A stretch of DNA of 24,506 nt from an uncultured bacterium (GTDB lineage: Bacteria > Actinomycetota > Thermoleophilia > BMS3ABIN01). The stretch spans positions 1-24,506 of the forward strand of contig CAJVWY010000001.1 of the NCBI GenBank assembly GCA_913009925.1. The letters are read 5' to 3'. The position numbers and the translations under genes were made by a program. Below the pieces are notes generated by a model. It was not told the origin of the DNA. It worked only from the letters and a program-made list of their open reading frames with translations, and searched no databases. Within the stretch, counting starts at the first letter, position 1, and each line of letters starts with the position of its first letter. Positions 12,733 through 15,964 of the stretch are shown in pieces.

Positions 12733-12754
12733 GTGCTGGTTCCCCCTCGGGAAA

Positions 12755-12806
12755 ACTCTAAATTAAGCAAAACAGCTTTGCAAGACATCGCCGCCGCTGC
12801 TATCCT
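12755..12806. promoter_or_regulatory. Candidate bidirectional promoter with a shared palindromic -35 (TTGCAA)
   Basis: TTGCAA at 12778-12783. Plus strand: N17 then TG-c-TATCCT (12801-12806). Minus strand: N17 then TAGAGT (12760-12755). Confidence 0.55.
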
Positions 12807-12948
12807 CATAATCTCCAGTATATATGTATGCAGCCGGGAGGCAATGACCGTTTTACGGTTGCCGGCGCCGATGTCTGGTATCCCCCGGGGAACTGGAACG
12901 GAGGTAGAGAACCTGTCTGTTCAAGCTGATGACATCCGCAGTCAAAGC

Positions 12949-13800
12949 GTGGTGGTAGCCCGCTACATCCGTGACGCGCGCCGGCTGGTGGAGGCGGCCA
13001 GGGCCGCTGGCGCCACCGTAGGGCTGGTGCCCACCATGGGGTTCTTCCACGAAGGCCATCTGAGCCTGATGCGCGCGGCCCGCGACGAATGCGGCTACTC
13101 GGTCGTCAGCATCTTCGTAAACCCCACCCAGTTCGGCGACGGTGAAGACCTGGGGTCATATCCGCGCGATATGGAGCATGACCTGGAGCTGGCAGCCGCT
13201 GAAGGCATGGACCTGGTATTCGCCCCGTCCGCAGCCGAGATGTACGGCGGCGGTCAGGGAACCATGGTGGAGCCGGGCCGGGTGGCGGCAGGACTTTGTG
13301 GCCGCTCTCGCCCCGGGCATTTCCGTGGCGTGGCCACAGTGGTCGCCAAGCTGTTCAACATCATCGGGCCCGATGCGGCCTATTTCGGGCAGAAGGACGC
13401 GCAACAGGCGGCGGTGGTCAGGGCGATGGCGGACGACCTGGACTTCCATACGCGGATCAGGGTCATGCCCACCGTGCGCGAGCCGGACGGGCTGGCCATG
13501 AGCTCCCGCAACAGTTATCTTTCCACGGACGAACGGCGGCAGGCGGCCGTGCTTTACCAGGCTCTCACCCGGGTCCGCCAGGCGGCGCTAGCCGGTGAGT
13601 GTAGCGCGTCGGCCCTGGTCCAGTCGCTGGAGCGGGAAATCGGCGAGCAGCCGGCGGTGGAGCTGGAATACGCCCAGGTGGTCGATCCGGACACCATGCA
13701 GCCGGTGGCACAACTGGGGAAGCGGGCGCTGGCTGTAGTGGCGGCCCGCGTGGGACCGGCGCGGCTGATAGACAATATATTAATCAAGAGGCGGGATTAG
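12949..13800 (+). CDS. panC: Pantoate--beta-alanine ligase
   Basis: VPTMGFFHEGHLSL, SIFVNPTQF, RPGHFRGVATVVAKLFNI, YFGQKDAQQ, REPDGLAMSSRN, RLIDN. Start uncertain (GTG 12949; ATG 12871 or 12844 possible). Confidence 0.95.
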   Translation: MVVARYIRDARRLVEAARAAGATVGLVPTMGFFHEGHLSLMRAARDECGYSVVSIFVNPTQFGDGEDLGSYPRDMEHDLELAAAEGMDLVFAPSAAEMYGGGQGTMVEPGRVAAGLCGRSRPGHFRGVATVVAKLFNIIGPDAAYFGQKDAQQAAVVRAMADDLDFHTRIRVMPTVREPDGLAMSSRNSYLSTDERRQAAVLYQALTRVRQAALAGECSASALVQSLEREIGEQPAVELEYAQVVDPDTMQPVAQLGKRALAVVAARVGPARLIDNILIKRRD

Positions 13801-13801
13801 G

Positions 13802-14206
13802 ATGAGACGCACCATGATGAAGAGCAAGATCCACCGGGCCACGGTGACGGCTGCCAGTATCGACTACCAGGGCAGTATCACCGTGGATTCCAACCTTCTT
13901 AAGGCGGCGGACATCCGACAATATGAGCAGGTACATGTATTCGACATCACCAATGGCGCCCGCCTGGTCACTTACGCCATTCCCGGAGACGAAGGCGAGG
14001 TCTGCGTGAACGGCGCCGCCGCCCGGAAGGTGGATGTGGGTGACATGGTGATCATTCTCTCCTTCGGCGCTTACTCGCCGGCGGAGCTTACCGGTTTCCA
14101 GCCGCGCATAGTCAAGGTCGACAACCGCAACCGCATCACCGGGCACATGCTGCCGGACAGCGACGTATCCGGGGCGCGGACGGGGCAGGTGAACGCCAAT
14201 GAGTAG
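13802..14206 (+). CDS. panD: Aspartate 1-decarboxylase
   Basis: MMKSKIHRATVT, self-cleavage site G-S in YQGSITVD, TYAI, VNGAAAR. Confidence 0.97.
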   Translation: MRRTMMKSKIHRATVTAASIDYQGSITVDSNLLKAADIRQYEQVHVFDITNGARLVTYAIPGDEGEVCVNGAAARKVDVGDMVIILSFGAYSPAELTGFQPRIVKVDNRNRITGHMLPDSDVSGARTGQVNANE

Positions 14207-14657
14207 GGAGAAGGAGACGGGGCCGGCGGTGACTCCGGTTTCCGTATACAGCATTGAACTGGAATTCGCCATGGAACAGGAGCTGGATATCCGCGACATC
14301 ACCGGTGAGTTTACCGCCGCCATCAGGGATTCGGGCCTGAAGGATGGTACCGCCACCGTCTTCGTGCCCGGCGCCACCGGCGCCGTCACCTGTCTGGAAT
14401 ACGAGCCGGGGGTCATAGCCGATTTTCAGGCGGCTATTGAGAGGATTGCACCCCGCGACATGCACTACCAGCACAATGTCAACCTGTCCGACGGCAACGG
14501 CCACGGCCATGTACGGGCGGGGCTGCTGGGTCCATCCCTGTCCATTCCCTTTGCCGGTGGTGAGCCCGTACTGGGTGTATGGCAGCAGGTGGCGTTGGTG
14601 AACTTTGACAACCGCAGCCGTTCCCGCCGGGTAGTCATACAGGCGGTCGGCGCCTGA
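14199..14657 (+). CDS. YjbQ/UPF0047 family protein (secondary thiamine-phosphate synthase-like)
   Basis: VFVPGATGAV, YQHN...NGHGHVRAGLLGPS, LGVWQQV; overlaps the panD stop by 8 bp. Confidence 0.9.
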   Translation: MSREKETGPAVTPVSVYSIELEFAMEQELDIRDITGEFTAAIRDSGLKDGTATVFVPGATGAVTCLEYEPGVIADFQAAIERIAPRDMHYQHNVNLSDGNGHGHVRAGLLGPSLSIPFAGGEPVLGVWQQVALVNFDNRSRSRRVVIQAVGA

Positions 14658-14677
14658 GCGCCCGCCCGGGAGAGACC

Positions 14678-15964
14678 TTGTCCCCGATCCTGCAGATAGC
14701 CCTGGACTTTCTGGATCTTCCCCGCGCCCTGGCGGTGGCCGAAGAGGCCATCAGGGGTGGCGTGGACTGGGTCGAGGCGGGCACCCCCCTGATAAAGAGC
14801 GAAGGGCTGGACTCGGTACGCCGGATGAAGCAGCGCTGGCCGGACAGGGTTATCGTCGCCGACCTGAAGACCATGGACGCCGGACGATTCGAGATGGAAT
14901 CCGCCGCCAAGGCCGGGGCCGGGATCGCCGGCGTGCTGGGGGCCGCCGCCGACGCCACCATCAGTGAATGTATCGAGGTAGCAGGAAACTACGGCCTGAA
15001 AGTTGTTGTGGACATGATTGAAGTGCCGGATCCGGTGGAAAGGGCAAGGCAGGTGGAGGCTATGGGGGCAGACTACATCGGTATCCACACGGCAATCGAC
15101 CAGCAGATGCAGGGCAAGGCCCCTCTGGAGACCCTGGAGCTGGTAAAGGCGGCGGTGGAGATGCCGGTGGCCGTTGCCGGGGGCATCAATTCGGAAACAG
15201 CCGCTGACGCCGTGAATGCCGGAGCGGATATCGTTATCGTAGGCGGGGCCATCATCAAGGCGGCCGACGCCGAGGCGGCGGCGCGCCGGATAAGGCAGGC
15301 AATGGATACCGGGACCGCCATCAACACCAGGCTTTATAAAAGGGCCACCGGCGCCGGTATCCGGTCCGTCCTGGAAATGGTCTCAACCGCTAACATCTCC
15401 GATGCCATGCATCGCAGCGGTGACATTTCCGGCGTCACCCCGGTTTTCCCCGGCCTGAGAATGGCGGGGCCGGCCGTGACCGTGCGCACCTCTCCGGGGG
15501 ACTGGGCCAAGCCGGTGGAGGCTATCGATCAGGCCGGCGAGGGTGATGTGGTGGTCATCGACGCCGGTGGCGCCGGACCGGCGGTATGGGGCGAACTGGC
15601 GACCCACAGCTCTCGAAAGAGGGGCCTGGCGGGTGTAGTAGTCCATGGAGCAGTCAGGGACGTGGCTGATATCAGGGATATGCAATTCCCGGTGTTCGCG
15701 GGAGAGATCACGCCGACGGCGGGCGAGCCCAAGGGGTTCGGCGAGATAGGCGTGCCGGTCACCATCTCCCGGGTAAGGATCCATCCTGGCGACTGGATGG
15801 TAGGTGATGACGACGGCGTCGTAGTCATTCCCGGAGGCAGGGCCGCCGAGGTGGCCAACCGCGCCATGGATGTGATGGAACGGGAGAACCGTCTCAGGAG
15901 GGAGATCGAGGACGGGAGCACTCTTAGCCAGGTGGCCTATCTGCAGAAATGGGAGAAAACCTGA
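14678..15964 (+). CDS. Fusion of 3-hexulose-6-phosphate synthase-like (OMPDC/HPS barrel) and RraA/HMG-aldolase-like domains
   Basis: N-terminal LQIALD, EAGTPLI, ADLKTMDAG (DxKxxD), YIGIHTAID, VAVAGGIN. C-terminal STANISDAM, AGPAVTV, AVWGEL, GAVRD, PGDWMVGDDDGVVVIP. TTG start after GGGAGAG. Confidence 0.9.
   Translation: MSPILQIALDFLDLPRALAVAEEAIRGGVDWVEAGTPLIKSEGLDSVRRMKQRWPDRVIVADLKTMDAGRFEMESAAKAGAGIAGVLGAAADATISECIEVAGNYGLKVVVDMIEVPDPVERARQVEAMGADYIGIHTAIDQQMQGKAPLETLELVKAAVEMPVAVAGGINSETAADAVNAGADIVIVGGAIIKAADAEAAARRIRQAMDTGTAINTRLYKRATGAGIRSVLEMVSTANISDAMHRSGDISGVTPVFPGLRMAGPAVTVRTSPGDWAKPVEAIDQAGEGDVVVIDAGGAGPAVWGELATHSSRKRGLAGVVVHGAVRDVADIRDMQFPVFAGEITPTAGEPKGFGEIGVPVTISRVRIHPGDWMVGDDDGVVVIPGGRAAEVANRAMDVMERENRLRREIEDGSTLSQVAYLQKWEKT

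Follow-up and report, generated by a model that had tools for sequence, protein, structure and literature searches.

PanB (EC 2.1.2.11, PF02548) makes ketopantoate by adding a one-carbon unit from 5,10-methylene-tetrahydrofolate to the enolate of 2-ketoisovalerate on a divalent metal, and its gene lies beside panC and panD or beside a DUF2520 gene. A second activity on the same compound, ketopantoaldolase (EC 4.1.2.12; 2-dehydropantoate = 3-methyl-2-oxobutanoate + formaldehyde), was described in the 1950s and is, to our knowledge, an orphan to which no gene has ever been assigned. Free formaldehyde can also serve as a substrate for certain variants of PanB, which provides a precedent for its condensation with ketoisovalerate by a metal enzyme (PMC7073904).

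Several natural fusions of HPS (3-hexulose-6-phosphate synthase) have been described. In the archaeal HPS-PHI and the already published Fae-HPS proteins, a cleaving HPS is joined either to a feeder (the hexulose isomerase PHI) or to a formaldehyde taker (Fae, a likely formaldehyde sink), and Fae-HPS passes formaldehyde onto tetrahydromethanopterin. Another catalogued family, NF005442/PRK07028, bears the name 'bifunctional hexulose-6-phosphate synthase/ribonuclease regulator'. Its member Mhun0647 from M. hungatei has a measured HPS activity of 0.21 μmol/min/mg, about 30-fold lower than that of Fae-HPS, and the publication gives the function of the second domain of this 'HPS-MenG' protein as unknown and assigns it to carbon metabolism linked to pentoses and RuBisCO, with no link to pantothenate (PMC5241800). 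The RraA-like class II 4-hydroxy-2-oxoacid aldolases form a further point of comparison; among them, HMG/CHA aldolase (3NOJ) uses pyruvate or oxaloacetate as nucleophile.

Here we describe a pantothenate operon in a 24,506-nucleotide stretch of DNA (the window) from a Thermoleophilia MAG that is 70% complete. We consider it probable that an unrelated module, a small YjbQ protein together with an HPS::RraA fusion, has taken over the place of PanB in this operon and makes ketopantoate from sugar-derived formaldehyde, independently of folate.

Organization of the operon

Four genes, panC, panD, yjbQ and the gene for the HPS/RraA fusion, lie head-to-tail with gaps of 1, -8 and 20 bp, as read directly from the open reading frames and their junctions.

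12949..13800, + strand: panC, pantoate-beta-alanine ligase (TIGR00018, 312.8 bits, cut-off 212.75; PF02569, 345 bits); stop codon TAG at 13798-13800
13802..14206, + strand: panD, aspartate 1-decarboxylase, the source of beta-alanine (TIGR00223, 140.2 bits, cut-off 106; PF02261, 154 bits); ATG at 13802, 1 base after panC; stop codon TAG at 14204-14206
14199..14657, + strand: yjbQ (UPF0047), clade II (PF01894, 105.6 bits, cut-off 27; TIGR00149, 80.9 bits, cut-off 67.75); ATG at 14199, overlapping panD by 8 bases; stop codon TGA at 14655-14657
14678..15322, + strand: N-terminal half of the fusion, HPS domain (TIGR03128, 233.9 bits, cut-off 200)
15386..15964, + strand: C-terminal half of the fusion, RraA-like class II (metal-dependent) 2-oxoacid aldolase domain (PF03737, 161.4 bits, cut-off 24.5); residues 237-428, including a C-terminal helical tail

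The fusion gene runs from a TTG at 14678 to 15964, and the 20-base gap before it contains the ribosome-binding site GGGAGAG. For panC, a longer reading frame from a GTG at 12733 is possible, but counted from the start at 12949, homology sets in at residue 4.

The original prediction had described this gene order and spacing, a window without panB, panE or a hexulose-phosphate isomerase gene, and catalytic-type motifs in both domains of the fusion. The reading frames and junctions agree with the first of these points, profiles for PanB, PanE, DUF2520 and SIS/PHI gave no match within the window, and the motifs are present and conserved in an alignment of 14 fusion-family sequences (A1).

Domains of the fusion protein

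Over its full length the protein shares the two-domain architecture of NF005442, which it matches with 593.7 bits (barely over the cut-off of 593; residues 2-427 against positions 3-428 of 430), and its relatives score 560-602 bits. The motifs D62-x-K64-x-x-D67, H137, W-G305-E-L and R327-D328 are conserved in A1. In the HPS half, E33, D62, K64, D67, D112 and H137 are invariant, and the solved structures nearest to it are HPS entries (9LJ9, 3F4W and 3AJX) rather than KGPDC; the top match, 9LJ9 (E = 1.2e-64), is deposited as 3-hexulose-6-phosphate synthase, and its 426-residue chain has a length consistent with an HPS-PHI fusion.

The RraA-like half matches 3K4I and 3NOJ in the PDB. It shares the fold family and the Arg-Asp pair of HMG/CHA aldolase, with R327-D328 aligning with the catalytic R123-D124 of 3NOJ and both residues invariant in A1, and E306, which is Gly in some members of the fusion family, stands at the position of a metal-linked Asp of that enzyme. 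Against the HMG/CHA aldolase equivalog models the scores lie below the cut-offs (TIGR02798, 111 bits against 304.5; NF006731, 120.5 against 179), as do those against the RNase E regulator models (NF006875, 77.7 bits against 136; TIGR02998, 42.7 against 241.25). To judge from these matches, the RraA-like half is of the fold and chemistry type of HMG/CHA aldolase but is no orthologue of it. Both halves look catalytically competent.

Homology to PanB (PF02548) was found neither in the window nor in the genome. The module would resemble PanB by functional analogy and not by family membership, and the two differ in their number of catalytic units, one in PanB and two or three in the module. Another natural fusion partner of HPS is aldehyde:ferredoxin oxidoreductase, also a likely formaldehyde sink; among ten long HPS-containing proteins, none joined HPS to YjbQ or to a pantoate enzyme.

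Scarcity of panB in genomes that carry the fusion

We found no panB in the source genome (70% complete) or in 23 genomes of the same family, many of which reach a completeness of 97% or more. Within Thermoleophilia, panB was detected in 1 of 29 fusion-positive compared with 10 of 12 fusion-negative genomes (Fisher p = 6e-7, uncorrected for phylogeny). In Desulfobacteria panB is the rule (57 of 61 genomes); only 4 lack it, and these include each of the 3 that carry the fusion (p = 1e-4). One archaeal class has the fusion in 61/61 genomes and panB in 0/61, and among the control genomes Methanosarcina acetivorans gave a match to the fusion family and none to panB.

When fusion genomes were sampled across many phyla, only 5/50 gave a panB match, and several of these copies are decayed. 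One (in genome G043) is a pseudogene that has a frameshift and lacks ~85 internal residues, one (G054) is scrambled over ~30 residues, and one (G064) is internally deleted; an apparently intact panB accompanies the fusion in two to three genomes (G056, G090 and perhaps G064). By the state of these copies, panB is decaying in genomes that carry the fusion. Most of the genomes are MAGs, so individual gene absences are soft, and related genomes are non-independent samples. The panC gene is retained in 39/41 Thermoleophilia and in panB-less Desulfobacteria and Jettenia genomes, one closed chromosome among them, which argues that the gap at the pantoate step is real.

The fusion in the position of PanB

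Families encoded around the fusion were detected in all six-frame open reading frames. Within Thermoleophilia, a PanC-PanD-PanB locus (L004) parallels the PanC-PanD-YjbQ-fusion order of the source operon, and DUF2520-PanC-PanB loci (L001-L003) parallel DUF2520-PanC-YjbQ-fusion loci (L034, L043, L054 and L058). YjbQ and the fusion together therefore occupy the exact position of PanB in two operon layouts of this class. Elsewhere, PanE is encoded directly downstream of the fusion at nine loci in Archaea and Bacteria, PanC or DUF2520 is found near it in Actinomycetota and two other lineages, and flanking by PanE, PanC or DUF2520 recurs in at least six lineages. At about two-thirds of the 80 fusion loci the neighborhood is free of pantoate genes; it holds PHI alone, a PTPS-like gene, genes for acetyl-CoA synthase or pterin binding, FolD, or genes of unrelated kinds. 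The conserved unit in Desulfobacterota is phi-fusion, with no adjoining pantoate gene.

A proposed route to ketopantoate

In the route that we propose, fructose-6-P would be converted to D-arabino-3-hexulose-6-P, possibly by YjbQ in the source operon and, in other lineages, by a canonical PHI whose gene lies immediately upstream of that for the fusion. The HPS half, working in the cleavage direction, would release ribulose-5-P and formaldehyde, and the RraA-type aldolase half would add this formaldehyde to the enolate of 2-ketoisovalerate, yielding ketopantoate. Reduction by IlvC in the source lineage, or by PanE or DUF2520 in others, would follow, and PanC would couple the reduced product to beta-alanine derived from PanD. 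Gene order, the identity of the domains, the conserved catalytic residues and the phyletic patterns are observed, and HPS activity is published for a homologue; the direction of HPS, the aldolase nucleophile, the passage of formaldehyde from one half to the other and the part played by YjbQ we infer.

Compared with PanB, the module would share the product, the acceptor and the operon position, with formaldehyde from a sugar phosphate as C1 donor in place of 5,10-methylene-tetrahydrofolate. As in the Fae-HPS and HPS-PHI proteins, a cleaving HPS would be coupled to a feeder or a taker, but because the fusion partner is an RraA-type aldolase, formaldehyde would be built into a vitamin precursor through a carbon-carbon bond and would not end on tetrahydromethanopterin. 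Ketopantoate is a 4-hydroxy-2-oxoacid, so the proposed reaction would be chemistry of the aldolase family with a different substrate pair. The proposed nucleophile, ketoisovalerate with its tertiary carbon, and the linkage to HPS set the fusion apart from HMG/CHA aldolase. The reaction proposed for the aldolase half is exactly that of EC 4.1.2.12.

A folate-independent replacement of PanB, with an RraA domain using HPS-derived formaldehyde, was the suggestion of the original prediction, which also proposed a search of the genome for panB, a test for anti-correlation of panB and the fusion, and a look for pan linkage in other taxa. The function is inferred; its support comes from the absence of panB in the source genome and its same-family relatives, from the anti-correlation, seen in three separately sampled classes and one cross-phylum set, and from pantoate or pantothenate genes near the fusion in both domains of life. 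The positional swap in two layouts, the decayed panB copies and the apparent competence of both halves also speak for it. Against it stand the many fusion loci free of pantoate genes, the two to three apparently intact panB copies, the lack of PHI in Thermoleophilia, the low HPS activity of Mhun0647 and the Gly that some family members have in place of E306. A loss of panB for want of folate C1 units was considered and rejected for the source lineage, in which SHMT is present, so that the swap was not forced by a lack of folate.

The fusion might instead run the ribulose-monophosphate route in reverse, to make pentoses or to deal with formaldehyde; the aldolase half would then detoxify or assimilate formaldehyde by joining it to pyruvate to give 4-hydroxy-2-oxobutanoate, and the pantothenate link would be incidental. 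Archaeal HPS-PHI and Fae-HPS fusions do serve pentose synthesis (PMC5241800), characterised RraA-family aldolases take pyruvate-type nucleophiles (3NOJ), pyruvate had already been named as an alternative acceptor in the original prediction, and the Desulfobacterota unit is phi-fusion alone. We regard this as unlikely, since it leaves unexplained the absence of panB alongside the fusion in three separate classes, the panB pseudogenes in fusion genomes, the module in the place of PanB in two layouts and the adjacency of PanE repeated in both domains of life. Moreover, with zwf and transketolase present in the source genus, pentose synthesis there does not require the fusion, and a need for it in that role was rejected for this genus.

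Salvage of pantoate or ketopantoate, with only panC and panD kept and the fusion feeding formaldehyde C1 units to folate or pterin metabolism or serving some other role, seems to us quite unlikely. Neither a ketopantoate reductase gene in the operon of the fusion in many lineages nor the exact positional replacement of PanB is predicted by salvage, and a role in C1 supply gives no reason for losing panB, because PanB draws on the same C1 pool; SHMT is present. It would fit with the small genomes of the same family (1.6-2.5 Mb) and with the pterin-binding and CdhD genes, PTPS-like gene or FolD that adjoin the fusion in several lineages. Pantoate auxotrophy with panC kept is known in other bacteria and counts in favor of salvage. 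In a different reading, the RraA half would be a non-catalytic regulatory or protein-binding domain modulating the HPS half, as E. coli RraA is for RNase E. The curated name of NF005442 still says 'ribonuclease regulator', and the fusion from M. hungatei shows little HPS activity (PMC5241800), but the scores against the RraA regulator models fall far under their cut-offs, the domain is closer to aldolase-type members, its catalytic Arg-Asp pair is invariant, and its identity of 67-84% across Thermoleophilia is typical of an enzyme; we judge a purely regulatory domain very improbable.

Coenzyme A is universal, and yet PanB is missing from many archaea and several bacterial phyla that do possess enzymes which consume pantoate. 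If the replacement of PanB by the module is correct, a gene for the ketopantoate step would close a gap of long standing in metabolic reconstructions and in predicting the auxotrophies of uncultured microbes, a sequence could be attached to the orphan EC 4.1.2.12, and an explanation could be given for the second domain, so far called 'unknown', of a fusion family whose database name, unlike our reading, holds no link to pantothenate. A sugar phosphate would then deliberately be turned into formaldehyde to serve biosynthesis as a C1 donor without recourse to folate, and the module would have practical appeal for making pantothenate independently of folate and for synthetic pathways based on formaldehyde. 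A literature search, with most subscription journals outside its coverage, returned no paper linking the fusion to ketopantoate or to missing panB.

YjbQ and the missing isomerase

PHI is absent from all 41 Thermoleophilia genomes, and without it the supply of substrate to the HPS half needs YjbQ or another enzyme. Among the 50 fusion genomes, YjbQ is encoded upstream of and adjacent to the fusion in 10/14 that lack PHI and in 0/36 that bear it, and clade II YjbQ is carried by 13/14 and 19/36, respectively; in Desulfobacterota the slot directly upstream of the fusion holds PHI. In a tree of 61 YjbQ sequences the fusion-linked proteins form a distinct deep clade (support 100/99) with its own signature, and in Thermoleophilia the linked copy is strictly co-inherited with the fusion. 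This strict co-occurrence supports the earlier suggestion that YjbQ is part of the pathway. YjbQ of any kind is found in 48/50 fusion genomes, which makes presence of the family at large uninformative, and the signal lies only in clade and position.

A clade II YjbQ fills the PHI slot only in genomes that lack PHI and may therefore be a PHI analogue. YjbQ gave no SIS match in comparison with PHI (TIGR03127, SIS fold), and any PHI-like role would be one of analogy, not homology. We offer as a tentative and rather doubtful prediction that the fusion-linked clade is a non-homologous 6-phospho-3-hexuloisomerase. Were this so, yjbQ and the fusion would form a self-contained module of three activities that converts fructose-6-P and 2-ketoisovalerate to ribulose-5-P and ketopantoate, and a large protein family with no assigned role, to which nine orphan crystal structures found in our PDB search belong, would gain its first native activity. 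The lack of PHI in the 41 Thermoleophilia genomes and the YjbQ clade in the PHI slot of PHI-less genomes are new here.

A PTPS-like protein was also considered as a substitute for PHI and rejected, as the genomes with a PTPS-like gene in the upstream slot have a canonical PHI elsewhere. The YjbQ/PHI pattern comes from about three independent lineages only, and many genomes with PHI carry a clade II YjbQ as well. Away from the fusion, the neighbors of clade II YjbQ genes (PhoH, an HD-domain receptor, MFS and Cas4) are uninformative, with the exception of a phosphofructokinase gene beside a non-adjacent clade II copy in one PHI-less Clostridia genome.

Organization of the operon

The operon of the window consists of four genes, with coordinates taken from the ORF list and the junctions read directly.

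12949-13800, + strand, panC
13802-14206, + strand, panD
14199-14657, + strand, yjbQ
14678-15964, + strand, HPS/RraA fusion

The coordinates, the junctions and scores above curated cut-offs for all four products bear out the tightly packed operon of the original prediction. The panC stop codon (TAG) is followed by one base and the ATG of panD, the ATG of yjbQ lies 8 bases inside panD, and the fusion starts with TTG after a 20-base spacer carrying a GGGAGAG ribosome-binding site. The fusion matched NCBIfam NF005442 over its full length with 593.7 bits (cut-off 593), its HPS domain scoring 233.9 against TIGR03128 (cut-off 200) and its RraA-like domain 161.4 bits against PF03737. The operon's neighbors are a divergent family-4 uracil-DNA glycosylase gene on the upstream side and, downstream, a convergent ECF sigma gene; a terminator-like hairpin, called on the opposite strand, lies at the fusion stop. 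An HMM search of the window found no PanB, PanE, DUF2520 or SIS/PHI gene, confirming that panB, panE and a hexulose isomerase gene are missing from it. The panC frame extends without a stop from as far upstream as the GTG at 12733, 72 codons 5' of the start used (window 12733-12948), but PanC homology begins only at 12958, and the panC start used is therefore tentative.

YjbQ and the Fusion Occupy the Operon Position of panB

The window's genome, a 1.23-Mb MAG in 205 contigs, gave no match to PanB (PF02548), but because absence from a single MAG that is 69.8% complete proves little alone, we examined its relatives. The closest homologues of the fusion occur in MAGs named Thermoleophilia or Gaiellales. 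The search for panB that the original prediction had proposed for this genome remained negative when extended to 23 same-family genomes, many of them 97–100% complete. Ten genomes from four other families of Thermoleophilia do have panB, and across the class the fusion shows the opposite distribution, with panB in 1 of 29 fusion-positive versus 10 of 12 fusion-negative genomes (Fisher p = 6e-7, uncorrected for relatedness). Two same-family genomes without fusion and panB also lack panC, and therefore the whole operon was probably missed by assembly there.

By its coordinates, every panB of Thermoleophilia directly adjoins panC. HMM annotation gives two panB-type layouts, PanC-PanD-PanB (locus L004) and DUF2520-PanC-PanB (L001-L003), and two layouts with the fusion, PanC-PanD-YjbQ-fusion (the window and L005-L018) and DUF2520-PanC-YjbQ-fusion (L034, L043, L054, L058). 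The same position is thus held by PanB and by YjbQ plus fusion in two different layouts, which is the strongest single argument for replacement of PanB and implies that YjbQ is part of the replacing unit. In Thermoleophilia, homologues of this YjbQ at ≥49% identity were found only in fusion carriers, always directly 5' of the fusion, and in none of the 10 panB-type genomes; the adjacency is kept even in a family with panC outside that operon. Co-inheritance with the fusion and the shared PanB position support the earlier suggestion that YjbQ takes part in the pathway.

In two panB-type loci of Thermoleophilia, neighboring genes share one stop-free reading frame: DUF2520, PanC and PanB in L001:1414-3777 (-), and PanC and PanB in L003:553-2328 (+). 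These frames may encode fused polypeptides, or high GC content may simply have left the spacers without stops; were DUF2520, PanC and PanB truly fused, DUF2520 would gain support as the ketopantoate reductase of panB-type Thermoleophilia.

Exclusion of panB beyond Thermoleophilia

Scanning one genome per species by alignment yielded >590 fusion loci. The best 80 of these, which we analyzed, come from Actinomycetota, Desulfobacterota, Planctomycetota (including anammox genera), Omnitrophota, Aerophobetes, Clostridia and many archaeal groups. Any match to panB was found in 5 of 50 fusion genomes from these 80 loci versus 11 of 14 control genomes. Of 61 evenly sampled Desulfobacteria genomes, 57 have panB, and the four that lack it include all three fusion carriers (p = 1e-4); in the archaeal class around genome G081, the fusion occurs in 61 of 61 genomes and panB in none. 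Carriers without panB retain panC, including a closed Desulfobacterales chromosome, and the panB gap in fusion carriers is real. The anti-correlation that the original prediction proposed to look for is therefore seen in Thermoleophilia, in Desulfobacteria, in the archaeal class and in the cross-phylum set of 50 genomes.

Several of the panB matches in fusion genomes are damaged. G043 (L195:1536-2094) has a pseudogene: its two ends match a relative's PanB at ~90% identity, but the middle has lost ~85 residues, among them the conserved VGD-PF, KLE and GH-GLTPQ blocks of the PanB alignment, and the reading frame shifts where the ends meet. In G054 (L196:1497-2330), ~30 residues are scrambled and the correct ones are readable in another frame, although both G043 and G054 are long-read MAGs in which small indels could be sequencing errors. 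Of two copies in G064, one, located at a contig end (L197:1021-1392), has lost an internal segment in frame, and the other is cut by a contig end. These remnants in fusion-bearing Actinomycetota may represent stages of decay after displacement. The fusion genomes G056 and G090 carry an intact-looking panB.

Gene Neighborhoods and Alternative Roles

All ORFs around the fusion at the 80 loci were clustered first, and Pfam names were given to the clusters afterwards. PanE/ApbA lies directly 3' of the fusion in 9 of these best 80 of >590 loci, the bacterial cases being one deltaproteobacterium and three candidate-phylum lineages and the archaeal ones Nitrososphaerota, an Asgard archaeon, Hecatellales and Nezhaarchaeales. 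Actinomycetota encode PanC, PanD or DUF2520 near the fusion, and one locus each of Planctomycetota and Desulfobacterales has DUF2520 close by. In all, ~25 of the 80 loci, from six or more lineages, have a pantoate-gene neighbor, so the pan linkage on which the original prediction was built recurs in other taxa. The remaining loci have PHI alone, a PTPS-like gene, CdhD with a pterin-binding protein, FolD, DUF362/ferredoxin or unrelated genes.

That pantoate linkage is not universal among the 80 loci is the main evidence keeping other readings alive. The fusion might serve pentose synthesis, a reading weakened in this lineage by zwf, present in the window's genome and its genus, and transketolase, present in the genus, which together make the pentose supply independent of the fusion. 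Alternatively, panB might have been replaced for want of folate C1 units; near-complete same-family relatives encode SHMT, however, and therefore methylene-tetrahydrofolate should be available and the exchange was not forced by a lack of folate. These relatives also have a weak ApbA-like gene and IlvC, an enzyme able to take the place of ketopantoate reductase.

At L031, L038, L048 and L050, the genes for CdhD (acetyl-CoA synthase delta subunit) and a pterin-binding methyltransferase-like protein are followed by yjbQ and the fusion, physically linking the module with Wood-Ljungdahl methyl-branch genes; the hosts are Omnitrophota and one 1.3-Mb genome labelled Planctomycetia. In three Thermoplasmata loci (L077, L081, L089), a DUF362 protein with a 4Fe-4S ferredoxin insert is encoded directly 3' of the fusion on the same strand.

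The Two Halves of the Fusion

Among solved structures, the HPS half matched best to 9LJ9 (E = 1.2e-64), whose 426-residue chain is deposited as 3-hexulose-6-phosphate synthase; the HPS structures 3F4W and 3AJX came next, with KGPDC well behind. The metal and catalytic residues of this half are invariant in a 14-sequence alignment of the fusion family with identity down to 39%. The Methanospirillum hungatei member HPS-MenG (Mhun0647) has been purified and had an HPS activity of 0.21 μmol/min/mg, compared with 6.05 μmol/min/mg for Fae-HPS; the function of its second domain was stated to be unknown (Kono et al., PMC5241800). The RraA half is nearest to 3K4I, an uncharacterised protein, and 3NOJ, an HMG/CHA aldolase. 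Arg-327 and Asp-328 of the fusion align with the catalytic Arg-123 and Asp-124 of 3NOJ, and the position of Asp-102 is Glu in the window's fusion and Gly in some orthologues. This half fell below the equivalog models for both HMG/CHA aldolase and the RNase E regulator RraA, and it is therefore related to both by fold but orthologous to neither.

We consider it fairly probable that the module makes ketopantoate in PanB's place: the HPS half would release formaldehyde, which the RraA-type half would add to ketoisovalerate. As far as comparative genomics reaches, the data support this interpretation, already put forward in the original prediction. Ketopantoate belongs to the 4-hydroxy-2-oxoacids, the substrate class of HMG/CHA-type aldolases, and some PanB variants are documented to condense free formaldehyde with ketoisovalerate (PMC7073904, citing Sugantino 2003). 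No paper linking the fusion to ketopantoate was found in the searchable literature, which mostly excludes subscription journals; the collinearity of the two layouts, the Desulfobacteria and archaeal replicates, the panB pseudogenes in fusion carriers and the complementarity of YjbQ and PHI are new evidence.

In a representative search, HPS was also found fused with PHI, ribose-5-P isomerase and aldehyde:ferredoxin oxidoreductases, and its joining to the latter makes HPS plus a likely formaldehyde consumer a recurring design. Individual HPS-domain fusions (P0147, P0216, P0182, P0262, P0236) involve aldehyde:ferredoxin oxidoreductase (three proteins), ribose-5-phosphate isomerase A and STAS; those with the oxidoreductase look like another disposal path for HPS-released formaldehyde.

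YjbQ and the Missing Isomerase

Canonical PHI (TIGR03127, E ≤ 1e-10), which would supply hexulose-6-P, was found in 0 of 41 Thermoleophilia genomes. Among the best 80 of >590 loci, the same-strand slot directly 5' of the fusion holds YjbQ in Actinomycetota, Omnitrophota and one Planctomycetia, a SIS protein in Desulfobacterota, which is canonical PHI above the curated cut-off, and a PTPS-like protein in anammox bacteria and Aerophobetes. PHI is present in 36 of the 50 fusion genomes and absent from 14. YjbQ fills the slot in 10 genomes, none of which has PHI, so that slot YjbQ occurs in 10 of 14 PHI-less versus 0 of 36 PHI-bearing genomes (Fisher p = 1e-7, with only ~three independent lineages). 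The YjbQ family is represented in 48 of the 50 genomes by 1–3 copies each, and a tree of 61 sequences has two deep clades (support 100/99), with all slot copies in clade II. Counting all copies, clade II occurs in 13 of 14 PHI-less versus 19 of 36 PHI-bearing genomes. It always has Gly where clade I has a 96%-conserved His, and is further marked by fixed Glu-to-Asp and Lys-to-Arg switches and one invariant Glu.

All nine PDB matches of YjbQ are labelled hypothetical. In Escherichia coli, overexpression of yjbQ compensates for a pdxB deletion, and the inferred route yields a phosphorylated α-ketol, 2-oxo-3-hydroxy-4-phosphobutanoate (PMC3010111); this physiological clue is compatible with ketol isomerase chemistry of YjbQ but falls short of demonstrating it. 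We regard clade II YjbQ as a possible, though less than likely, PHI analogue; considerably more probable is that, in this lineage, YjbQ works as a component of the PanB-replacing module.

The PTPS-like (6-pyruvoyl-tetrahydropterin-synthase-like) slot gene encodes ~120 amino acids (L044, L052, L055, L056, L057, L064, L069, L084, L085), and at the anammox loci UVR-motif (mcsA-like), mcsB-like and clpC-like genes lie downstream. It was rejected as a PHI substitute because its genomes carry PHI elsewhere.

A distant YjbQ paralogue (27–28% identity) lies ~1.1–1.3 kb from zwf, the glucose-6-P dehydrogenase gene, in the window's genome (G000:C11:9322-9756, with an in-frame TAG) and in a same-genus relative (G001:C36:8135-8545), a hint that the family may act on sugar phosphates. 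In a single case, the PHI-less, fusion-bearing Clostridia MAG G082 (L145:4326-5837), a clade II YjbQ gene away from the fusion directly follows a co-oriented phosphofructokinase gene.
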